A stretch of DNA of 64,000 nt from an uncultured Lachnospiraceae bacterium (GTDB lineage Bacteria > Bacillota > Clostridia > Lachnospirales > Lachnospiraceae), in NCBI GenBank assembly GCA_910587715.1, contig CAJUMV010000001.1:102729-166728 (forward strand). The letters are read 5' to 3'. Within the stretch, counting starts at the first letter, position 1. Every line of letters starts with the position of its first letter. Below, piece by piece: positions 236 through 28,637 of the stretch. Below the pieces are notes generated by a model. The model was given only the letters and a program-made list of their open reading frames with translations. It was not told the DNA's origin and made no database searches. The translations under genes were made by a program, and so were the position numbers.

Positions 236-1726
236 ATGTTTTATTATATATTTACATTCATTATCGTATCGTTGTTTCTGGTTTACAAGGAGAGAAACAG
301 CAAATCCATCCGGTACAGCATTCTTACCATGTGCAGCTATACGCTGGCATTGTTTATGTTTGCGCTGTATATATCGAAGGACTCTTATTACTATAACACG
401 ATTAACTATCTGTTTTCTATCCCCCTGCCAATCTGGAACAGGCTGATGTTTTTTCCGGTTTCCTTAAAGCCGGTTATCCGACTGATGAATCTGTTTATTC
501 TTGCGACGCTTTACTTTGGCACCCGGTTTGTTTTTGCTATCTGTGATCTGCCGGACAGACAGACTCGTAAATATTCCCGTATTTTTCTTGCTCTGTTCGC
601 GTTGGAATGGATACTGTATGACCCGGATCTGTTTGGTGCCGCTTATTTGTTTTTCTATCCAGATTGCTTGGATTTCCGGCAATTTAACCGTATCAAAGAT
701 GGCTTGCACGGACTCACGGTTGCTGCCAATACGGGAGTTATTCTGACAGGGCTGCTGTTATTGTACAGGAATTACAGGAAGTCTTCTCCGGTTCGTATTA
801 TTAAGGCGTATTCCGCCGGAATCGGCATTTGCCATGCATTGATTATGGGCTCTTATCTTTTTGTGTTTGGGCGCTACCCGATATGCCTTGTGAAGATATC
901 CAAGACGGCAGGTATCATGTCCTACCTGACGGCACCCCTGATTACAGATAAGTGGCTTTCCGCTTTATTCCCTTATTACCTGATATGCTCTTTTATATTG
1001 ATTTGTTTTAGCCTGTATCGCGCGGGCAGGATAGAGACTTCATTGAAAAACGAGAGTTTTACACTGTCTAAACAGATTTCGGCGGCAGATACTACATCCA
1101 AGGCGTTCTGTCATTATGTCAAGAATGAGGTGCTTGCCATCCAGTCGGAAATTGAAATCATAGATGCGACACCGGAGCAGGCGGTGTTCTTTCGAGAAAT
1201 CATAGACCGCTGCGAGCATCTTTACTTGCGCTTGGATATTCTGTACAGGAGCAGCAGAGCTTCTGTGCTCACGCTGCAGGAAACCTGTGTCAATGACGTT
1301 CTGAGAGAATTACTGTCTGATTTTTCCGGTGAACTGCGTGAATGCCGTGTACAGCTTCGGATGCCGGAAGAAACAGTGGGCGCCTTGCTCGACCGAACCT
1401 ATTTTTTCCAGGCGCTACATAATATATTGAGCAACGCGCTGGATGCAATGGACGGTATGCCGGGCGAGAAAAGACTACTCGCCGTATCTCTTGACAGCAT
1501 CAACAGGTGGACCACCATACAGATTACGGATAATGGCAGAGGAATCCCAGCGGCAGAGCTTCCCCATATATTTACGCCCTTTTACACGACCCATCCGCTG
1601 ACGAATCACTGGGGCATCGGTCTGTCTTTGACCTATAAGATTATCGAAGCGCACGAGGGGCATATTACGATAGACAGTGTGGAAAATCGGGGCACAACGG
1701 TCGAGATTCTCCTGCCGCGCATCTGA
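236..1726 (+). CDS. Multi-TM sensor histidine kinase (GHKL ATPase core); no cognate response regulator adjacent
   Basis: 496-aa ORF with GAGG about 7 nt upstream. About 8 hydrophobic helices occupy the first ~270 aa. H-box-like FCHYVKNEV is followed by N-box NILSNALDAM, G1 DNGRGIP and G2 GIGLSL. Confidence 0.8.
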   Translation: MFYYIFTFIIVSLFLVYKERNSKSIRYSILTMCSYTLALFMFALYISKDSYYYNTINYLFSIPLPIWNRLMFFPVSLKPVIRLMNLFILATLYFGTRFVFAICDLPDRQTRKYSRIFLALFALEWILYDPDLFGAAYLFFYPDCLDFRQFNRIKDGLHGLTVAANTGVILTGLLLLYRNYRKSSPVRIIKAYSAGIGICHALIMGSYLFVFGRYPICLVKISKTAGIMSYLTAPLITDKWLSALFPYYLICSFILICFSLYRAGRIETSLKNESFTLSKQISAADTTSKAFCHYVKNEVLAIQSEIEIIDATPEQAVFFREIIDRCEHLYLRLDILYRSSRASVLTLQETCVNDVLRELLSDFSGELRECRVQLRMPEETVGALLDRTYFFQALHNILSNALDAMDGMPGEKRLLAVSLDSINRWTTIQITDNGRGIPAAELPHIFTPFYTTHPLTNHWGIGLSLTYKIIEAHEGHITIDSVENRGTTVEILLPRI

Positions 1727-1744
1727 CGGGCTGCCTATGCCCGT
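1726..1744. terminator. Short hairpin between convergent genes (weak candidate bidirectional terminator)
   Basis: ACGGGC-tgcctat-GCCCGT, a 6-bp stem, lies in the 8-nt gap and overlap between the kinase stop and the GH5 stop. The flanking T-run is only short. Confidence 0.2.
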
Positions 1745-3096
1745 TTCGTCCGGCTTTGTAAAAGTGCCACATACTCCGGATAGTATTCGCAGTTTTTAAA
1801 CAGGAAAGAATCCGGCATGGTAAGCAGCTCCTCCGCGCTGTATTCCTGCAGCAGCGGTTTCAGAATGCATTCCTCCTGAAATTTGTATAAAATACCGCGC
1901 TGCCTGAACTGCATCTTATATTTTAATTCTTGGGAGGCGGCTGAAAATTCAGGCAGCTTGGTGATGGCTTTCATGAGCCGGTCTGCCTCATCCATCTCTT
2001 TATAATGTGTCCATTTTTCATGAATCCGGCTGACCAATTGCATCCACGGAGAATTGCTCTGGGGATAGCACATTCCCATAAATTGTGCGTCCTTATATGA
2101 CCAGAGTGTCCAAGAAATTGCGGCTTCATCGAATAGATCCAAAGTATCTTCCAGCAGTTCCATAGTGTGATTGATGTTTTGGCGGTCAATGTCATATCCG
2201 GCTTCACCGCACAAAATCGGTCGTCCGAACCGTTCCCGTATGGAAGCGATTTTGTTTAAGATTTCCCGGAATTTCTGTTTTCTGGCTTCCCGCTCATATG
2301 CGGGGCTGAATAGGTCTGGCTCCCACACCGTCGGATAGTAGTGGAAGGACAAGGCGGTATTGCTATCCTGTATTCTCTCGATGCAGTCGAACTGCATGGC
2401 AAAATGGTCCCCCTCCAGAAAGATGATGTGGTGAGGGTCTGCCATGCGGATATTTTCGGTCACTTCCTCATAAAAATCAGTCAGAAGATTGGGCGCATCC
2501 ATGAGGTAAGGTTCGTTTAACACATCATAGCCGAGCAGATATTCCCTGTCTGCACAACGCTCAGCTATGGCTTTCCAGAGCGAGACTATCTGGTTCCGGA
2601 ATACTTTATAAAACCAGAACTGCGGAATGCCTGTGGCATTGTCTGAATGCCAGTCGGGATTTTGCCCGCCGGGGACCGTGTGCAGGTCCGGAAGCAGATA
2701 AATTTGGTATTTGTCGCACAGATCTAGTAGATAGTCAAAATAGGAGAATCCTTTGGTCTTTAACTGTTCGGGGTGGTTGTCGTCTATAAACAGCCGGTAG
2801 TTGAACGGCACGCGGATGATGTTAACGCCGCATTTTTTCAGAAAAATGAAATCATCCTCCGTCACAAAATTACGGATGAGGGAATCGAAAAAGCGAACGC
2901 TGACCTCCTCGCCAAAAATGGCGGCAGCGGCCGCGCGGATTTGATGGTCCGGCGTAGGCAGACCAATCATAAAATGCTCCAGATTCAGGTAGCTTCCGAT
3001 GCCTACGCCCTGAAACAGCAGAGGTTTGCCGTCTTTGACAAATTGTGTGCCACTGACTTTGATAAATTTATTTTCCATCAAATATACAATCTCCAT
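1735..3096 (-). CDS. Glycoside hydrolase family 5 (cellulase/mannanase-like), no signal peptide
   Basis: 453-aa ORF with NIIRVPF, the GYDVLNEP acid/base motif and a CGEAG nucleophile-like motif. An alternative start ATG lies at 3078 (MENKF...). Confidence 0.7.
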   Translation of the reverse strand: MEIVYLMENKFIKVSGTQFVKDGKPLLFQGVGIGSYLNLEHFMIGLPTPDHQIRAAAAAIFGEEVSVRFFDSLIRNFVTEDDFIFLKKCGVNIIRVPFNYRLFIDDNHPEQLKTKGFSYFDYLLDLCDKYQIYLLPDLHTVPGGQNPDWHSDNATGIPQFWFYKVFRNQIVSLWKAIAERCADREYLLGYDVLNEPYLMDAPNLLTDFYEEVTENIRMADPHHIIFLEGDHFAMQFDCIERIQDSNTALSFHYYPTVWEPDLFSPAYEREARKQKFREILNKIASIRERFGRPILCGEAGYDIDRQNINHTMELLEDTLDLFDEAAISWTLWSYKDAQFMGMCYPQSNSPWMQLVSRIHEKWTHYKEMDEADRLMKAITKLPEFSAASQELKYKMQFRQRGILYKFQEECILKPLLQEYSAEELLTMPDSFLFKNCEYYPEYVALLQSRTKRA

Positions 3097-3210
3097 TTCT
3101 TTTTATTAAGCAGCTTGTCGCATGATACATTTATAAACAACTTACCGTATTATTTCATCTCTACCCTAATGTGACAAGGATGAAAATTTATCCTCCTCAC
3201 TCGCTAAGTT

Positions 3211-3239
3211 TTGCGCTTCCCCGCTGTTTATGCTATAAT
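3211..3239 (+). promoter_or_regulatory. SigA-type promoter TTGCGC-N17-TATAAT with TG-extended -10
   Basis: TTGCGC at 3211-3216, an exact 17-nt spacer, and TGcTATAAT ending at 3239. It sits 57 nt upstream of the first + strand gene of the glycan region. Confidence 0.5.
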
Positions 3240-3271
3240 GTTCGCGATGGCAATGAGCAGTGCGCAGACAG
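3240..3271 (+). promoter_or_regulatory. Conserved leader box, copy 1 (GTTCGCGATGGCAATGAGCAGTGCGCAGACAG)
   Basis: Near-identical to 27276-27306, with a 21-nt perfect core CGCGATGGCAATGAGCAGTGC. Both copies begin immediately after a TATAAT box. Confidence 0.5.
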
Positions 3272-3295
3272 ACAATAAGCAGAGCGGAGGAAAAT

Positions 3296-4054
3296 ATGTT
3301 TTCATTTGACGATTACAGGGAAATGATTAAAATTATAAAGTCTACGGGCAGACAGTGCGGCTACGCGGAGGCGCTAAACAGAGATTCTTTTGTTATTATG
3401 CGCCATGATGTAGAGTACAGCGTGGAGCGGGCGTGGCAGCTTGCCAAAGTGGAGCAGAGCATGGACTTTATCTCTACGTTCTTTTTCCAGTGGACAAACA
3501 ATTCCTATAATATCCTTTCCCGAAAGAATATGGATATCATCAAGGACATGCATGAGAGAGGGCAGCGTATCGGGCTTCATTTTGCGTTGAACGGCATGAC
3601 GGATATGGAACAGATCAAGAAGCGCATTCGTATGGAAATTGATATTTTAAGCGAGATGTTCGGCTTCGCCATTACGGAATTTTCTGTGCACAGACCTTCC
3701 AAGGACGTGCTTCGGGAGAATATCAAGCTGGACGGTCTGCTCAATGCGTATCAGGATGATTTTTTCACCTTTGCAGATAAAATAACAGATGATACGAAAT
3801 TGAGCGTGAAATATATGTCGGATGCAAACCATGTGTGGCGTTACGGCTACCCGGATGAGGCGAATATTACAGGTTATGATAAGGTGCAGATTCTGACGCA
3901 TCCTTTTGCGTGGAGCAAGAAAGGGTATAATAATTTTGAAAATTATCGGGCGCTGATACAGGAGAAATATGAGGAGCTGGTGCAGTCCGTGGATAATGAA
4001 TGCAAGGATTTCGGGGAATATAAGGAATATTTTATGGGTAAGGACGTAAAATAG
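3296..4054 (+). CDS. Divergent polysaccharide deacetylase-like (CE4-superfamily-like) protein
   Basis: Start moved to the ATG at 3296, which has GGAGG 6 nt upstream. The MRHDVEYS motif and an alternating beta/alpha pattern resemble the RHDVD-type deacetylase-like proteins found next to AsnB-like genes in O-antigen loci. Confidence 0.4.
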   Translation: MFSFDDYREMIKIIKSTGRQCGYAEALNRDSFVIMRHDVEYSVERAWQLAKVEQSMDFISTFFFQWTNNSYNILSRKNMDIIKDMHERGQRIGLHFALNGMTDMEQIKKRIRMEIDILSEMFGFAITEFSVHRPSKDVLRENIKLDGLLNAYQDDFFTFADKITDDTKLSVKYMSDANHVWRYGYPDEANITGYDKVQILTHPFAWSKKGYNNFENYRALIQEKYEELVQSVDNECKDFGEYKEYFMGKDVK

Positions 4055-6187: not shown

Positions 6188-7297
6188 ATGAATAAGAAAA
6201 ACGAACGAAAAAAAATAGCCTTCTATATTGGCTCCCTCGCCAAAGGCGGAGCAGAACGTGTGTTTGTGAATCTGGCGGCGTACTTTCGGGAGGAAGGATA
6301 CGCTGTCGTTATGGTGACACAATATCAGAAGGAGGAGGAGTATAAACTGCCCGATGGAATGGAACGGGTTCTCTCCGATATCGAAGAAGAAAAAGTGTCC
6401 GCAAGCCGGGTAGTGAATTTCTTCAGACGGCTCAATAAATTACATGTGATATGGAAAGAACAGAAAGCGGATCTCGTGTTGTCCTGCATCGGAAAAAATA
6501 ATTTTATGGCAGTTGTCACCACGATGGGGACAAAAACGAAGGCTGTGGTTTCTGTGGTCGGGGAGACGAAGGAGGAATATCCCTCGAGGGGAATGCGGAT
6601 GCTGGCGGATTTTCTCTTTTCCCGCGCAGCAGGTGTTATTTTACAGACAGAGCGTTCCAAGAGCTTTTTTTGCAGGAAAGTGAGGGAGAAGGCTGTCATC
6701 CTGCCCAACTCCCTGAATCCAGCTTTTATCATGCCGCGGTATGAGGGCGTGCGGGAGAAGAGGATTGTGTCTGTGGGGCGTATGGATGCCAACAAGAACC
6801 ATGAGATGCAGCTTCGCGCGTTTGCGGCTTTAAAGGACAAATACCCGGATTATACGCTTGAGATTTACGGTGACGGGGAGCTGCGCTCCCATATAGAAGA
6901 AACGGCGGCACAGCTTGGCATTGCGGAACGGCTTTTTCTGCCCGGCGTGGTGCAGGACGTGGCGGCGCGGATTGAGAAAGCGTCCTTGTTTCTGCTCACT
7001 TCCTATTCGGAGGGGGTTTCCAATGCCCTGATTGAAGCGCTGGCGCTGGGACTGCCGGTGATTGCCACGGACGTGCCAAGCGGCGGCACGGAGGAGCTGA
7101 TGACGGACGGCGTGAACGGGCTGGTGATTCCCGCGGGGGATCAGACGGCGCTTACACGTGCCATGGACAGGCTTTTAGAGGAGCCGGATTATGCGGACAG
7201 GCTTGGCAGGGAAGCGGCGCGGATTCAGGAAAGTCTTGCGCCGGAGCGGGTGAATTCCATGTGGAAAGCGTATTTTGAGAAAGTTATAGATAAATAA
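6188..7297 (+). CDS. Glycosyltransferase family 4
   Basis: The C-terminal EGVSNALIEALALGLPVIATDVPSGGTEELMTDGVNGLVIP segment is an E-x7-E GT4 retaining-transferase signature. The ORF is 369 aa. Confidence 0.8.
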   Translation: MNKKNERKKIAFYIGSLAKGGAERVFVNLAAYFREEGYAVVMVTQYQKEEEYKLPDGMERVLSDIEEEKVSASRVVNFFRRLNKLHVIWKEQKADLVLSCIGKNNFMAVVTTMGTKTKAVVSVVGETKEEYPSRGMRMLADFLFSRAAGVILQTERSKSFFCRKVREKAVILPNSLNPAFIMPRYEGVREKRIVSVGRMDANKNHEMQLRAFAALKDKYPDYTLEIYGDGELRSHIEETAAQLGIAERLFLPGVVQDVAARIEKASLFLLTSYSEGVSNALIEALALGLPVIATDVPSGGTEELMTDGVNGLVIPAGDQTALTRAMDRLLEEPDYADRLGREAARIQESLAPERVNSMWKAYFEKVIDK

Positions 7298-7325
7298 CAC
7301 GCGATATTAATGAAGGAGGTTTTCT

Positions 7326-8468
7326 GTGGGAACAGGGACAGAGAACAAGGTAAATAGGGAAACGGGCGGCGGAGATTCTGCGGTCAGTGCGATACAGGCG
7401 GCGCTGCGAATTATGGTTTTTCTTGCGATATTCGTGGGTATCCTTCTGCCCGTATCTTATATGGTACGGACAAACGGCGACGTAAAGGACCGTTTTGCAG
7501 GCTTTTATGCGGAAAAGAAAGATTCGCTCGACGTTGTGATCATCGGTTCCAGCCCGGTCTTTCCTTACTATGCGGCGCCGAAGCTGTGGGGGGAGACGGG
7601 GATTGCCATGTACCCGCTTTCTACCAATGTACAGCGCCCTGCCGCCATGCGTTATCTGGCACAGGAGGCGGCGAAAAGCCAGTCGCCTGCGCTCTATATT
7701 TTCGAGATGCGCATGTTTACGATGGAAGAGGCGGGGCTGATGGAGAATATGGCATATACCCGGGGCGTAACGGATAATCTGCGCTATTCGCCTCAGCGAA
7801 TCCGCACGATACGAGGGTTGGTGCCGGAGGACGATGCGGAAGGGCGGCTAAGCTACTATTTTGATATTATGAAATATCACACGAACTGGAAAATGCTGGC
7901 GCTTCCCTCTGAGTGGGCGAACATGTTCTATCATCACAGCCATCCGCTGAAAGGCTATACTTTCCGGGACGAGGTGGGACCGCAGCCGCAGCCCGTCTGT
8001 GGCGGCGCAAAAGGCGTTTTGGCAATGCCAAAGGAGCAGGAAGCGTATTTACGGGAGCTGCTTGCTTATCTGCAGGAAAACAGGCAGGAGGCGTTGTTTA
8101 TCGCCTCTCCTTACGGGGAATCTCTGGAGGAACAACAGATGTTCAACTATATGGCGGATATTGTGGAAGAGAGCGGCTATGCCTTTTTGAATATGAACGA
8201 TTACTATGATGAGATTGGCATTGTTTTTGAGGAGGATTTCGCGGATTACGGCAGCCATACCAATGCAGTGGGGGCGGAAAAGTGTACGGATTTCCTGAAA
8301 AATTATCTGACTGCCCGCTACGCGCTCCCTGACCACCGTGGAGACGTTTCTTACGATTCGTGGGACAAAGCCTATGAGTTATGGAAAACAAGGCAGGATG
8401 AGGCTGCTAGGACGATTAGAGAGCGGATTGCGAACGGGGAGTATGCTGAAATCGCGGAAGAGGATTAG
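7326..8468 (+). CDS. Membrane-anchored SGNH/DltD/AlgJ-like protein (putative glycan O-acyl modification)
   Basis: GTG start with GAAGGAGG upstream and a single N-terminal TM. VVIIGSSPVF is a candidate Ser block. C-terminal DYGSHTNAVGA resembles the D-x-x-H(W/T) block of SGNH-like acyltransferases. Confidence 0.35.
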   Translation: MGTGTENKVNRETGGGDSAVSAIQAALRIMVFLAIFVGILLPVSYMVRTNGDVKDRFAGFYAEKKDSLDVVIIGSSPVFPYYAAPKLWGETGIAMYPLSTNVQRPAAMRYLAQEAAKSQSPALYIFEMRMFTMEEAGLMENMAYTRGVTDNLRYSPQRIRTIRGLVPEDDAEGRLSYYFDIMKYHTNWKMLALPSEWANMFYHHSHPLKGYTFRDEVGPQPQPVCGGAKGVLAMPKEQEAYLRELLAYLQENRQEALFIASPYGESLEEQQMFNYMADIVEESGYAFLNMNDYYDEIGIVFEEDFADYGSHTNAVGAEKCTDFLKNYLTARYALPDHRGDVSYDSWDKAYELWKTRQDEAARTIRERIANGEYAEIAEED

Positions 8469-26270: not shown

Positions 26271-26338
26271 GCCGGCAGGGGATGCGATACGGCAGCGCGT
26301 TTTACGGGGAAATCACAGGGAAGCGGGATGGAGACGGC

Positions 26339-27250
26339 ATGATTATCATAAGAGTGATGGGCGGGCTGGGCAATCAACTGCAGCAGTACGCCCTGTGTAG
26401 AAAATTTCAGAGTCTCGGCGTCGAAACAAAGCTGGACCTTTCCTGGTTTTCGAGGAGAAGTCAGCAGTCGGCGGCGGCGCCCAGAAAGCTGGCTCTCGCC
26501 GACTTTGAAGGGCTTTCTCTGGAAACGGCTTCCGAAGAGGAAGTGCGGGCGCTTCTCGGGAGAGCCTATGAGGAAAAGGCGGGTCTGGCGGAAAAAATGA
26601 AGAAACGGCTTGCGCCGGAAAAGATGCCGCTGTTTGAGGAATCGGAAATGTACCATCCGCAGATTTTCTCATGGCGGGAGCGTTATCTGGTCGGCTATTG
26701 GGCTTGTGAAGCATATTATGCGGATATTTTAGACAGGCTTCGGGAGGAAATCCGATTTCCCGAAAGCGGCGATGCCCGAAACCGGGAGGCGATGGCAGAG
26801 ATGTCGGCGCAGCCTTCCGTCAGCATCCATGTCCGCAGAGGGGATTATCTGGACGCTGCCAATGTATCCATGTTTGGCGGTATCTGTACGGAAGCATATT
26901 ATGACGCATGTGTCAAGCTTATAAAAGAAAAGTGTCCCGACGCGGTTTTCTATGTCTTTTCGGATGACGCGGATTATGTGCGCGCGCATTTTAAAGGCGG
27001 AGAGTTTCATATCGTGGACTGGAACCGGGAAGAGAACAGCTTTTACGACATGCAGCTGATGAGCTGCTGTCAGCACAATATCTGCGCGAACAGCACATTC
27101 AGTTTCTGGGGAGCGCGCCTAAACGGCAATCCCGAAAAAATCATGCTCCGCCCTTCCATCCACAAAAATACCCAGACCTGTGTTCCGGAAGAAATGCAAA
27201 AGCTGTGGGCAGGCTGGACCCTCGTAACCCCGCAGGGGACGCTCATTTGA
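26339..27250 (+). CDS. GT11 alpha-1,2-fucosyltransferase-like glycosyltransferase (compact form)
   Basis: MIIIRVMGGLGNQLQQYA, HVRRGDY and ANSTFSFWGARL motifs. I set the start at ATG 26339, after GGAGA. Confidence 0.8.
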   Translation: MIIIRVMGGLGNQLQQYALCRKFQSLGVETKLDLSWFSRRSQQSAAAPRKLALADFEGLSLETASEEEVRALLGRAYEEKAGLAEKMKKRLAPEKMPLFEESEMYHPQIFSWRERYLVGYWACEAYYADILDRLREEIRFPESGDARNREAMAEMSAQPSVSIHVRRGDYLDAANVSMFGGICTEAYYDACVKLIKEKCPDAVFYVFSDDADYVRAHFKGGEFHIVDWNREENSFYDMQLMSCCQHNICANSTFSFWGARLNGNPEKIMLRPSIHKNTQTCVPEEMQKLWAGWTLVTPQGTLI

Positions 27251-27275
27251 TATGAAAGGAAAATGATGGTATAAT
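27247..27275 (+). promoter_or_regulatory. SigA-type promoter TTGATA-N17-TATAAT with TG-extended -10
   Basis: TTGATA at 27247-27252 overlaps the stop of the upstream gene. An exact 17-nt spacer precedes TGgTATAAT, which ends at 27275. Confidence 0.55.
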
Positions 27276-27306
27276 GTCCGCGATGGCAATGAGCAGTGCC
27301 AGACGG
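27276..27306 (+). promoter_or_regulatory. Conserved leader box, copy 2 (GTCCGCGATGGCAATGAGCAGTGCCAGACGG)
   Basis: Same sequence as 3240-3271 apart from 1 mismatch, 1 indel and one distal change. It occupies the same position relative to the -10 box. Confidence 0.5.
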
Positions 27307-27311
27307 TAAGA

Positions 27312-27344
27312 TGACAAAATGGCTGCTTGCAGACAATTTTGTCA
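27312..27344 (+). other. Leader hairpin in the ~155-nt 5' UTR
   Basis: TGACAAAAT (27312-27320) pairs with ATTTTGTCA (27336-27344) around a 15-nt loop. The loop segment CTGCTTGC can alternatively pair with GCA-atg-AGCAG inside the conserved box. Confidence 0.35.
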
Positions 27345-27431
27345 GATTAGCGGATGATAGGGCGAAGCCCGCGAGCGAGGAAAACCGCAGGTTTTTCGAG
27401 CTTACACTGCGGAGTTAGGAAAGGCAACACT

Positions 27432-28637
27432 ATGAACTACAGCAATGACAAAATGGTAATGTATTTACACGGCGGCAGCGGCAATCACGGCTGTGAGGCG
27501 ATTGTCAACAGCACCTGCCATATGATAGAAGAGATTCCCAAGCTTCTTGTGACCAACAGCGAGCAGGAGGACAGACATTATTCGGTGGAACCGCTCTGCG
27601 AGATTCTTGAGGAGCGCAAGATTGCAGAGCATTTTTTTGCCCATGTGTGGTATTACGTCTGGCGCAAGGTGTTTCGTGACCCCGAATCCTTTATGCGCTA
27701 TCGTTTTCGTGATGTGATGGGGAAAAATCTGGCGCCCCTCTACCTCTCCATCGGCGGGGATATGTACTGTTACGAGCTGTCAAAGAAGGAAGCGATTACC
27801 GCCAACAGCGCGTTTAACAGGGCGGGGGCGAAGACCGTCCTCTGGGGCTGTTCTCTGGAGCCAGAGCTTCTGCAGGAGCCGGAGGTGGTGGAGGACATGA
27901 AGCGGTATGCGCTGATTACGCCGAGGGAGTCGATTACGACACAGGCGCTCGCGGCGGCAGGAGTGACGGAAAACGTGAAGCAGTTTCCTGACCCAGCCTT
28001 TGCGCTGGAGCCGGAGAAAACGAAGCTGCCCTTTGGATTCAGCGAAGGAAACACCATCGGCATCAACATCAGCCCGATGATTCTGAAATATGAAGAAAAG
28101 AATGGAATTACGATAGAAAATTACCGCAAACTAATTGACCATATTCTGGAGACGACGGACTGCCATATCGCGCTGATTCCCCATGTGATGTGGAAAAATA
28201 ATGACGACAGACTGACCATACATGAGCTTTACGGCGTCTATCAGGGAAATGACAGGGTGGTGAAGTTTGAGGACATGTCCTGTCAGAAGCTTAAATATGT
28301 GATTTCCAAATGCCGCGCCTTTATCGGGGCGAGGACACACGCAACTATCGCCGCCTACTCATCCATGGTTCCCACGCTGGTGGTGGGGTATTCCGTGAAG
28401 GCGAGGGGAATCGCGCAGGATTTGTTTGGCGATTCGGCGCATTATGTGCTTCCCGTGCAGACTCTCTCCGACTCGGAGGAGCTGATTGGCGCTTTTGAGT
28501 GGATGATGGAGAGAGAGGATGAGATCCGGGGACGATTGCGGGAGATTATGCCGGATTACTGCAAAAAGGCGGCTGCGGCGGGAGAAGAGCTGCGCAGGCT
28601 GTGGCGGGACCTGCATGAGAGCAGGGCGGAGCAGTAA
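27432..28637 (+). CDS. Polysaccharide pyruvyl transferase family protein (WcaK/CsaB-like)
   Basis: MYLHGGSGNHGCEAIVNST N-terminal motif and C-terminal GARTHATIAAYSSMVPTLVVGYSVKARG. I set the start at ATG 27432, after AGGAAAGG. The track ORF starts upstream inside the leader. Confidence 0.7.
   Translation: MNYSNDKMVMYLHGGSGNHGCEAIVNSTCHMIEEIPKLLVTNSEQEDRHYSVEPLCEILEERKIAEHFFAHVWYYVWRKVFRDPESFMRYRFRDVMGKNLAPLYLSIGGDMYCYELSKKEAITANSAFNRAGAKTVLWGCSLEPELLQEPEVVEDMKRYALITPRESITTQALAAAGVTENVKQFPDPAFALEPEKTKLPFGFSEGNTIGINISPMILKYEEKNGITIENYRKLIDHILETTDCHIALIPHVMWKNNDDRLTIHELYGVYQGNDRVVKFEDMSCQKLKYVISKCRAFIGARTHATIAAYSSMVPTLVVGYSVKARGIAQDLFGDSAHYVLPVQTLSDSEELIGAFEWMMEREDEIRGRLREIMPDYCKKAAAAGEELRRLWRDLHESRAEQ

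Follow-up and report, generated by a model that had tools for sequence, protein, structure and literature searches.

The 21-mer CGCGATGGCAATGAGCAGTGC, which follows two promoters in the window (the whole 64-kb stretch of DNA analysed here), is with high confidence the 5' part of an RNA module of ~135-150 nt that occurs at dispersed sites. Transcribed in the same direction as its host operon, this module folds into a four-helix junction with a pseudoknot, termed P0. Of the two copies in the window, one (copy 2) is a complete module carrying its own strong internal promoter, whereas the other (copy 1) has no more than the promoter and the first ~30 nt of the module, which run directly into the ribosome-binding site of the following gene (Table 1). 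Judging from its anatomy and genomic context, we tentatively regard the module as a generic transcript-boundary element, which would sequester the 5' end and protect the downstream RNA, and not as a glycan-specific regulator.

Table 1. Features of the two module copies and of their surroundings in the window
Feature	Position	Strand	Remarks
Copy 1, weak -35-like TTGCGC	3211..3216	+	17-nt spacer to the -10; read from the sequence
Copy 1, extended -10 TGcTATAAT	3231..3239	+	same motif and same 3-nt spacing in 75 distinct related copies
Copy 1, P0 5' strand CGCG	3243..3246	+	partner missing in the truncated copy
Copy 1, variable 5-nt linker AUGGC and family-invariant AAUGA	3247..3256	+	
Copy 1, P1 5' strand GCAGUGC	3257..3263	+	closing helix
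Copy 1, P2-base remnant (GCAGACAGACAAUAAG), then degenerate P1 3' strand GCAGAGC fused to GGAGG	3264..3290	+	
First gene behind copy 1	3296..4054	+	252 aa, without Pfam family
Copy 2, promoter TTGATA-N17-TGgTATAAT	27247..27275	+	11/12 consensus positions, TG present; extended -10 at 27267-27275
Copy 2, P0 5' strand CGCG	27279..27282	+	
Copy 2, linker AUGGC and invariant AAUGA	27283..27292	+	
Copy 2, P1 5' strand GCAGUGC	27293..27299	+	
Copy 2, P2, 57-nt hairpin	27300..27356	+	base CAGAC/GGAUG with tandem G.A, then second G.A motif AAGAU/AGAUU
Copy 2, P2 apex G(CUUG)C	27325-27330	+	
Copy 2, junction AUA and P3 hairpin GGGC-GAA-GCCC	27357..27370	+	nearly invariant family-wide
Copy 2, P0 3' strand CGCG	27370..27373	+	compensatory pairs in relatives
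Copy 2, P4 hairpin GCGAG-GAAAACC-GCA-GGUUUUU-CGAGC	27375..27401	+	tandem G.A near base
Copy 2, P1 3' strand ACACUGC and conserved purine tail GGAG	27404..27414	+	
First gene behind copy 2, polysaccharide pyruvyl transferase	27432..28637	+	401 aa; own ribosome-binding site ~27417-27424

On the + strand, exact occurrences of the 21-mer lie at 3243-3263 and at 27279-27299, each 3 nt after TGnTATAAT, with 0 occurrences expected by chance from 100 shuffles. From TATAAT (3234-3239 and 27270-27275) through CAGAC, the two copies differ by one T/C mismatch and one 1-nt indel; the sequences upstream of the -10 and the downstream genes are unrelated. The earlier note had thus correctly described a -10 and leader box that recur 24 kb apart beside unrelated -35 regions and genes, but had taken the box as a self-contained unit of ~30 nt, which is actually the 5' end of a ~140-nt module. 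The similarity of the two copies ends after ~36 nt because copy 1 is truncated; copy 2 goes on to 27414. The window holds no further match to the 21-mer at ≤3 mismatches, no inverted copy of the box, and no module copy in addition to copies 1 and 2.

Further analysis of the promoters revealed a consistent organization across the family. In 75 distinct related copies, TGnTAnnnT lies exactly 3 nt ahead of P0; the -10 reads TATAAT in 59 and another TAnnnT in 16 of them, with T1, A2 and T6 conserved, and TG is present at -15/-14 in 63. A -35 with at least 4/6 matches precedes 49% of the 75 copies, compared to 12.6% in shuffles. These sequence patterns, TGnTAnnnT together with the enriched -35 matches, are those of sigma-A extended -10 promoters, and the promoters proposed in the earlier note look real. 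The TTGCGC of copy 1 agrees with only 3/6 consensus positions and falls under the scan threshold; a promoter is needed at this site, because the upstream gene (1735-3096) is divergent. At copy 2, the -35 shares nucleotides with the stop codon that ends the preceding GT11 gene (26282-27250), and no terminator was found on the + strand between this gene and the gene behind copy 2.

The fold comprises four helices and the pseudoknot. P1 (GCAGUGC/GCACUGC) closes the module, P2 is long, variable in sequence and capped by G(CUUG)C, P3 is the hairpin GGGC-GAA-GCCC, and P4 contains tandem G.A pairs. P0 is formed by the 3-4 nt just 5' of GAUGG, which pair with CRCG between P3 and P4 and thereby cross P1. 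In an alignment of 48 distinct copies, 93.3% of the cells are paired, compared to 29-46% for slid controls, and 173 cells carry double changes, a value reached by none of 500 shuffles. All three pairs of P0 show compensatory changes (CACG/CGUG, CGUG/CACG and UGCG/CGCA in relatives) and 97% are paired; this complementarity is kept in promoter-type and other copies alike. At the base of P2, 7/7 pairs covary, and P1 covaries in the unbiased metagenome set. The excess of G.U/U.G pairs (54) over A.C/C.A pairs (18) points to a fold of the sense strand. The conserved stretch therefore belongs to an RNA fold with compensatory changes, in line with the transcript-level signal suggested earlier. The junction (AAUGA, AUAGGGCGAAGCCC and GCGAG/CGAGC) is nearly invariant while the helices vary freely; the module contains three to four tandem G.A motifs, and P2 keeps its length in addition to its apical G(CUUG)C. 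For the variable 5-nt linker, the mutual information with any junction or tail position never exceeds 0.2 bit, and no pairing partner was found.

Covariance-model scores separate the two window copies clearly. Copy 2 (27276-27414) scores 132.8 bits and ends in a purine tail that is conserved across the family (G 89%, G 72%). Copy 1 scores 34.6 bits, with its 3' half aligned through non-canonical pairs; its fold is no better than that of shuffles (z = 0.62) and lacks a stable hairpin. Its GCAGAGC departs from the canonical P1 3' strand GCACUGC, and the terminal GGAGG serves the gene starting at 3296 as its ribosome-binding site. Compared with the box-less context L001, the shared part of copy 1 begins at CAGAGCGGAGG.

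Two scans, covering 119 genome and 120 metagenome stretches in a sample biased by the seeds used, yielded at least about 100 distinct full-length copies, nearly all from Lachnospiraceae MAGs and gut metagenomes. The genome search for further box copies that the earlier note had recommended found an 18-mer together with the conserved downstream structure at no fewer than about 80 loci; these are spread over 38 or more Lachnospiraceae/Clostridia assemblies, with a maximum of 3 copies per assembly. The orientation is always sense, with a co-oriented gene or rRNA behind the module wherever the downstream sequence suffices; its own ribosome-binding site lies 20-40 nt past P1. The downstream genes include trkA, ackA, fabH, pyrK, argH, leuD, hpf, rng, mecA, a relQ-type synthetase, hydrogenase genes and 23S rRNA, and the module heads such genes in dozens of genomes and contigs, from Lachnospiraceae species and gut metagenomes respectively. 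Consequently, the idea that the box co-ordinates two glycan transcription units does not hold, as the same module precedes genes of such different functions. No match was found in phage and plasmid collections, and a literature search on module sequence strings returned nothing relevant.

The 5' edge of the module follows an exact-boundary rule, lying always at an extended -10 promoter, an upstream stop codon, the U-tract of a T-box leader terminator, or the 3' end of tRNA-Ala in rRNA operons. In 10 copies, from at least five upstream gene families, upstream ORFs of 160-503 codons end exactly at the UGA inside GCGUGAUGG, and one copy sits directly 3' of a T-box terminator. In rRNA operons of the order 16S-5S-tRNA-element-23S, the module directly follows tRNA-Ala and lies just upstream of a boxA-like CCUUGAAAACUA. 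About a quarter of the copies have no promoter at all.

Taking the module as a transcript-boundary element, P0 would pull its first nucleotides into the junction, burying the 5' end of the downstream RNA. The buried end would physically obstruct decay that depends on the 5' end (RppH, the 5'-to-3' exonuclease RNase J, and RNase Y entry), and the downstream cistron or pre-23S rRNA would gain a defined and stable 5' end, as with Firmicute 5' stabilisers and viral exoribonuclease-resistant RNAs (xrRNAs). A further, STAB-SD-like contribution may come from the purine tail GGRG that follows P1. Two separately started and stabilised transcripts would result in the window, though the remnant at copy 1 has probably lost most or all of the boundary function. 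Several points speak against such a role. A simple hairpin would suffice as a roadblock, and the near-invariant junction may instead bind a protein or ligand. Truncated and decayed copies are tolerated, as in copy 1 of the window and in the pta-ackA spacers of L253-L260. Moreover, were transcription to begin at the canonical distance of 7 nt from the -10, the P0 5' strand would stay untranscribed, despite the P0 complementarity in promoter-type copies; for P0 to form in these copies, transcripts would have to begin at the 5th nt or read through from upstream.

That junction leads to a less likely reading, in which the module is the binding site of a trans-acting factor for a broad regulon, either a global RNA-binding protein (e.g. 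an L7Ae-type binder of G.A/K-turn-like motifs) or a small ligand that would be sensed, riboswitch-like, as a global signal. Its near-invariance amid freely varying helices, the tandem G.A motifs, and the conserved length and apex of P2 are consistent with such a site, as is the richness of the downstream genes in central-metabolism and growth-state functions (ackA, fabH, pyrK, argH, leuD, hpf, the relQ-type synthetase and trkA). However, an expression platform, be it a terminator/antiterminator or a sequestered ribosome-binding site, is lacking: no terminator-like site was found on the + strand in the leaders 3240-3296 and 27276-27432, and the ribosome-binding site, 10-25 nt past P1, is unpaired. 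The gene set is functionally incoherent for any one ligand, the positions in the rRNA spacer and behind a T-box are odd for a riboswitch, and minimal copies keeping only the box and P1 persist.

Processive antitermination, a generalised form of what the earlier note had suggested, appears improbable. The nascent module would bind its RNA polymerase, or recruit Nus factors or, from another locus, a NusG paralog, and terminators and Rho would be resisted across long or untranslated units. Pseudoknotted RNAs that act in cis in this process have precedents in EAR and put; EAR and HK022 put resemble the module as cis-acting structured RNAs, and processive antitermination signals, like the module, occupy leaders or the gaps between cistrons of long polysaccharide operons. 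In the window, very long runs of co-directional genes begin behind both copies, and the module is found promoter-proximal, between cistrons, after the conditional T-box terminator and upstream of CCUUGAAAACUA, all of which would suit an antitermination signal. On the other hand, many copies stand before single short genes or in tight two-gene operons (pta-ackA, leuC-leuD), the leaders have no terminator inside or just after them, the rRNA spacer already has its own boxA-like sequence, and the mechanism does not require the exact-boundary rule. The features of the established systems are also absent. The 12-nt ops consensus GGCGGTAGnnTG of the ops/JUMPstart-RfaH system has 0 exact matches in the 64 kb and six with one mismatch (3.8 expected, i.e. 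chance level), none of them in either leader. As the earlier note had reported for the window, no NusG paralog (NusG_N or KOW) is present among the 30 ORFs scanned, which include all non-overlapped ORFs of 120-260 aa. LoaP-dependent 5' leaders carry a hairpin with a UNCG tetraloop (PMC12691694), and also a read-through intrinsic terminator in a long leader and a loaP gene beside the cluster, whereas the loops of copy 2 are CUUG, GAA and GCA, and no terminator lies in the leader. The first two genes of Bacteroides UpxY/UpxZ loci are a NusG paralog and its inhibitor, unlike the first genes here, which encode the protein without Pfam family and the pyruvyl transferase. EAR (epsC RNA, RF01735) gave no gathering hit in the window and none at E≤10 on 27230-27460. 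Furthermore, unlike ops, LoaP, UpxY, EAR and put, the module is not confined to polysaccharide or polyketide loci. What survives of the antitermination proposal is a generic, factor-independent role, to which no result specifically points.

Equally improbable is a selfish or neutral dispersed repeat of the BOX, ERIC or MITE kind, whose RNA-level constraint would aid its own spread or harmlessness at no gain to the host. BOX (pneumococcal), ERIC (enterobacterial), Correia (Neisseria) and bcr (Bacillus cereus) elements are intergenic, multi-copy, modular and RNA-folding, and can carry or abut promoters. The module is similar to them in being intergenic and multi-copy, with a variable number of units, in folding as RNA and in abutting promoters. 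Its repeat-like features include tandem arrays (one box, then up to 4 modules), five 24-nt units in L109, partial duplication of the 5' half of the box in L049 and L064, a duplicated TGATATAAT on both sides of a minority of copies, truncated and decayed copies, P2 types swapped at orthologous sites, and assemblies that break inside P2. A search for empty sites at pta-ackA found full or decayed copies only. Yet different species carry the module at the same sites (trkA, pta-ackA, fabH). Orthologous copies with the same P2 type differ by 1.5-9.5%, compared to 9-37% at the 4-fold sites of the adjacent gene, so that the module evolves 2-25 times slower; given the swapped P2 types, gene conversion among copies could account for part of this low divergence. 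P2 sequences that are completely different yet compensated argue against recent amplification. No terminal inverted repeats were seen and no target-site duplication was demonstrated; the strictly sense orientation with a gene behind, as well as the lack of a match in the phage and plasmid collections, also stands against a selfish element. Thus the module differs from BOX, ERIC, Correia and bcr in its strict orientation, same-site occupancy, strong constraint and deep covariation, and has a pseudoknotted junction instead of a simple long palindrome.

A DNA-level site, namely a transcription-factor operator over the promoter or recombinase sites of an invertible or shuffled promoter, is largely refuted: conservation does begin beside the -10, and a weak 19-nt inverted repeat (79% complementary) surrounds the copy 1 promoter, but this repeat is rich in A and T and belongs to a set of hits, at chance level, that all involve one ribosome-binding-site region, the window is free of an inverted box, about a quarter of the copies are promoterless, and the structure is strand-specific with G.U pairs and compensatory changes between sites ~100 nt apart. 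A leader peptide from a leaderless or translationally coupled mini-ORF (MAMSSA...) is ruled out, since the AUG inside GAUGG, despite lying ~8 nt after the -10 and overlapping the upstream stop codon as UGAUG, is missing from most subtypes (GAAAGC, GUAGGC, GCAGGC, GUAAGC, GUAUUA) once the box is not forced in the scan, and neither the length nor the sequence of the peptide is conserved.

Whatever its role, the module acts on a sizeable share of transcripts, with 5'-end protection, elongation control and global-factor binding as the candidates. It is a strongly constrained structured RNA with several copies per genome, and absent at threshold from Rfam 15, in Lachnospiraceae, a dominant family of the gut whose RNA biology has hardly been defined by experiment. 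In the annotation of glycan loci, such boxes should not be counted as locus-specific regulatory signals. The clash between promoter spacing and P0 pairing bears on the choice of start site in the organisms that carry the module. In addition, the unit of promoter plus module is a natural expression cassette, which could serve as a genetic part for the hard-to-engineer Lachnospiraceae.

A search of the window and 45 related loci against Rfam 15 revealed no family at the gathering threshold. The only family aligning end to end is Clostridiales-1 (RF01699), with 18.8 bits and E = 0.046 in a 231-nt search of the copy 2 region, compared to a gathering score of 48; the 45 other related loci gave no hit to it at E≤1 or gathering. 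Clostridiales-1 is an orphan motif of Clostridiales and the human gut, which was rated probably not cis-regulatory (Weinberg et al. 2010, PMC2864571). It shares with the module the same taxa and habitat, a 7-bp closing helix, a multi-helix junction, a long hairpin with GCUUGC at its tip, plus additional hairpins; the module variants L017, L023 and L100 have the distal hairpin GGAG...CGGA of its Rfam consensus. However, this consensus lacks the invariant AAUGA, AUAGGGCGAAGCCC and the 5' pseudoknot, and the module, always sense and just upstream of a gene, differs from a motif that is probably not cis-regulatory. The match is a resemblance only. Self-cleaving ribozymes were rejected after a comparison by eye of strand order and core strings with the HDV-like, hammerhead and twister types. 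The order of strands is similar in the HDV-like type, but P0 is no longer than 3-4 bp, the core nucleotides do not match, and Rfam gave no hit. A tRNA-like RNase P substrate, prompted by the 7-bp closing helix and the four-way junction, was dropped as the 5' "leader" is the most conserved part.

With Firmicute 5' stabilisers (5'-terminal structures, cryIIIA STAB-SD and the processed thrS T-box leader) and viral xrRNAs, the module has in common the position at the 5' end or cistron head and the orientation dependence. As a group, these RNAs also resemble it in the 5' nucleotides paired into a junction closed by a downstream helix, an SD-like purine tail and tandem copies. They have no sequence or family relation to the module, and its junction is four-helix compared to three-helix. 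The stabilisers known from bacteria consist of simple hairpins or of SD-like sites, and are not known to include a conserved multi-copy family. xrRNA folds of the junction-plus-5'-pseudoknot type block bacterial RNase J1 in vitro (PMC5760640). By analogy, the Lachnospiraceae module might, although we consider this rather doubtful, be a cellular counterpart of viral xrRNAs, whose conserved pseudoknotted four-helix fold would thread the 5' end of the transcript into its junction; it would then be a genome-wide cap at cistron heads, including those of rRNA operons, that would stop RNase J and fix stable 5' ends, and the first bacterial family of this kind.

The repeated box 3' of an extended -10 that the earlier note described was confirmed: the 21-mer CGCGATGGCAATGAGCAGTGC occurs exactly, on the forward strand, in both copy 1 and copy 2, and no further match was found in the window with up to three mismatches allowed, none being expected by chance. 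A single substitution and a 1-nt indel are all that separate the two copies between TATAAT and CAGAC; beyond CAGAC they no longer align. Both lie in a very large polysaccharide locus encoding glycosyltransferases, two asparagine-synthase paralogs, a pyruvyl transferase, a WecG-type transferase and CotH. The promoter of copy 2 is internal, strong and near-consensus (TTGATA-N17-TATAAT, 11 of 12 positions matching); it begins 31 nt past the stop of a GT11 gene, with no terminator found between the two. Copy 1, next to a divergent upstream GH5 gene, has only a weak -35.

Positions of the window features and of those in retrieved loci (L numbers)
Feature	Position	Strand	Remark
Copy 1 extended -10	window 3231-3239	+	TGcTATAAT, 3 nt before box
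Copy 1 21-mer	window 3243-3263	+	
Copy 1 3' flank	window 3264-3295		compared with L001 5930-6000
Inverted repeat at copy 1	window 3180-3198 / 3287-3305		19 nt, 79% complementary
Copy 2 extended -10	window 27267-27275	+	TGgTATAAT, 3 nt before box
Copy 2 21-mer	window 27279-27299	+	
Copy 2 full architecture	window 27276-27414		
ATGACAAAATGG, P2 5' arm	window 27311-27322		12-mer
ATGACAAAATGG, second occurrence	window 27445-27456		codons 5-9, pyruvyl transferase gene
Assembly breaks in copy 2 P2	window 27333-27345		L008-L011
Copy 2 linker in L006	~5856		GATGGC to GATGGG
T-box and module, L135	~1950-2400	-	
rRNA operon, L161	1-2094	-	
rRNA operon, L068	1-1500	+	
tRNA-Ala-module-tRNA-Ile, L114	1-834	+	short contig
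3' duplications, L109	~7300-7440	-	
3' duplications, L088	4786-5320	+	
Box duplication, L049	~1520-1565	+	
Box duplication, L064	~6650-6700	-	

Further copies, for which the earlier note proposed a genome search, are plentiful. Searching one genome per species with the exact string GATGGCAATGAGCAGTGC returned at least 119 stretches; among the matches listed, about 80 come from Lachnospiraceae or other Clostridia MAGs, with up to three per assembly, and the remainder are chance matches in membrane-protein genes of unrelated phyla. A metagenome scan of contigs with the exact mid-element string ATAGGGCGAAGCCCRYGARCGAG, which does not force the box, gave listed matches mostly from human and animal gut samples; the sequences analysed are mostly MAGs or metagenome contigs. 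Downstream of the box, the true hits share a conserved architecture: a long variable hairpin (apex GCUUGC), then AUAGGGCGAAGCCCGCGAGCGAG, another hairpin, CGAGC and lastly GCACUGCGG, complementary to the box's GCAGUGC. Copy 2 carries this full architecture as a single complete module, so the box of ~30 nt is not a self-contained signal but the beginning of a longer element. Folded in isolation, copy 2 reaches -51.7 kcal/mol (z = -3.6), whereas copy 1 holds only the first ~30 nt, with a predicted fold no better than shuffles.

RNAalifold on an alignment of 48 distinct full-length copies recovered the closing helix P1, the base of the long hairpin P2, and the short hairpins P3 and P4; the pseudoknot P0, in which nucleotides just 5' of GAUGG pair with CRCG after P3, was added to the structure for counting. 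In total, 93.3% of cells are paired, versus 29-46% for slid partners, and 173 cells changed on both sides; none of 500 shuffles reached the observed values, a statistic that overstates significance because related copies are non-independent. Compensatory changes occur in all three P0 pairs (CACG/CGUG, CGUG/CACG, UGCG/CGCA) and covariation in all seven pairs of the P2 base, while P4 covaries around a conserved tandem G.A and P1 varies as GCCGUGC/GCACGGC, GCGGUGC/GCACCGC and GAAGUGC/GCACUUC in the metagenome set. There are 54 G.U/U.G pairs against 18 A.C/C.A, the excess that a sense-strand RNA fold would produce. A covariance model built from this alignment, with rough E-values after a short calibration, gave 132.8 bits for copy 2 and 34.6 bits for copy 1; the range is 26-47 bits for other truncated copies and 20-25 bits for chance 18-mer matches.

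The 5' part in the metagenome set reads CRYG-N5-AAUGAGCAGUGC, in which GAUGGC is one linker subtype among several (GAAAGC, GUAGGC, GCAGGC, GUAAGC, GUAUUA). With these subtypes, the AUG of GAUGG drops out as the start of a leader peptide, and no pairing partner for the linker was detectable. A single linker substitution in copy 2 of another assembly of the same species (GCA_948722125.1) fits the family-wide variability at that position. Past P1, the 3' tail consists of a stretch of purines (G 89%, G 72%, then R).

Copy 1 retains the promoter, the P0 5' strand, the linker, AAUGA, the P1 5' strand and ~16 nt of the P2 base, followed by a degenerate P1 3' strand, GCAGAGC; this is joined to GGAGG, which serves a 252-aa gene as ribosome-binding site. 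The same gene in other strains follows a GT_STM0557_N-family gene without the box, and the common sequence starts at CAGAGCGGAGG, a recombination joint resembling the module's own 3' tail. The AT-rich, imperfect inverted repeat flanking the promoter and box shares positions with the ribosome-binding site and start codon and is probably a chance feature; an invertible promoter here is improbable. At copy 2, a 12-mer of the P2 5' arm recurs in the pyruvyl transferase gene, which could allow the P2 3' arm to pair with the beginning of that coding region; only 8 nt of the 12-mer are present in orthologs. The P2 hairpin is where four short-read assemblies of the window's species break, as expected for a multi-copy repeat; their contigs begin 88-100 nt upstream of the pyruvyl transferase gene.

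The module is in sense orientation in all copies, and wherever the flank is long enough, a co-oriented gene with its own ribosome-binding site lies 20-40 nt past P1. Its 5' edge falls on one of four kinds of boundary. The first is an extended -10 exactly 3 nt upstream (75 distinct copies), varying as TAnnnT, with TG in 63 of 75 and a -35 of at least 4/6 matches in 49%, versus 12.6% in shuffles. The second is a stop codon: in 10 copies, from at least five gene families, the UGA inside GCGUGAUGG closes a preceding ORF of 160-503 codons; in three more copies the ORF extends a few codons into the box. The third is the U-tract of a leader terminator, as in L135, where it belongs to a T-box leader (95 bits). 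There the module begins on the nucleotide right after the U-tract, placing two structured leader elements in series ahead of one gene; several human gut samples contain this locus too (L154, L155, L201, L239, L246). The fourth is tRNA-Ala in rRNA operons of the unusual order 16S-5S-tRNA-Ala-module-23S, and on one contig the module sits between tRNA-Ala and tRNA-Ile. In L161, a boxA-like CCTTGAAAACTA lies between module and 23S.

The genes behind the module are diverse: trkA and ackA (pta-ackA spacer) in five species each, fabH, pyrK, an RNase G/E family gene, argH, leuD (leuC-leuD spacer), hpf, gmd, and those for a RelQ-type synthetase, [FeFe] hydrogenase, flavodiiron protein, malic enzyme, mecA and lipid kinase. 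Polysaccharide loci are thus only one of its settings, and the notion of a signal particular to the glycan region does not hold.

Tentatively, we favour a boundary module: the first nucleotides of the RNA would be drawn into the junction, and the end so buried would be shielded from 5'-end-dependent decay. Three features suggest this reading: the 5' edge falls exactly on RNA boundaries, the very first nucleotides pair into the junction across P1, and the module keeps a constant place at the head of a cistron or pre-23S rRNA. A canonical start 7 nt past the -10 would leave the P0 5' strand untranscribed. P0 complementarity is nevertheless kept in promoter-type copies (61 of 74 fully paired, shuffle maximum 57; CACG never together with CGCG), and the fifth nucleotide after the -10 is always a purine preceded by C; either transcription starts at this nucleotide or read-through transcripts matter. 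The module has no terminator, sequestered ribosome-binding site or coherent regulon, which makes a classical riboswitch or locus-specific attenuator unlikely; a site bound by a global protein or ligand is an unlikely reading. An antitermination RNA that modifies the polymerase, akin to the function first suggested, is quite improbable, as is a selfish repeat; the testable defining features of ops/RfaH, LoaP, UpxY and EAR were not found.

Tandem arrays are common, with one box and up to four further modules, and deletion variants shrink to the box and P1 hairpin only. Orthologous copies of the same P2 type differ by 1.5-9.5%, versus 9-37% at 4-fold degenerate sites of the adjacent gene, and different P2 types in other orthologous pairs point to exchange among copies. 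In a further species group, the pta-ackA spacer holds a decayed copy that keeps P3, P4 and the P1 3' strand, with the box 3' half and P2 replaced. Module 3' parts are duplicated in tandem in four loci, including L022: L109 has five 24-nt units, each with GCACUGC, L126 three P4-P1' units, and L088 four modules after a single box, so that its pta-ackA spacer measures 554 nt. In two loci the box 5' half is partly duplicated in tandem (GCGTGATGGCAATG then NNCGCGATGGCAATGAGCAG), the second copy apparently joined inside the first. A second TGATATAAT-like -10 motif, duplicating the pre-box one, directly follows the P1 3' strand in L014, L039, L055, L069, L070, L031 and L053, the last two repeating ~15 nt on both sides of the module; the motif may represent either a target-site duplication or an additional outward promoter.

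No Rfam 15 family reached its gathering score in the window and 45 related loci. The sole full-length weak alignment was to the orphan motif Clostridiales-1 (18.8 bits versus 48), for which a cis-regulatory role was rated improbable by Weinberg et al. (PMC2864571). Both have a closing helix and a long GCUUGC-capped hairpin, and some variants of the module share a GGAG...CGGA hairpin with it; Clostridiales-1 is without the invariant junction strings and 5' pseudoknot. Analogues of the proposed boundary module would be Firmicute 5' stabilisers and viral exoribonuclease-resistant RNAs, whose junction-plus-5'-pseudoknot fold halts bacterial RNase J1 in vitro (PMC5760640).
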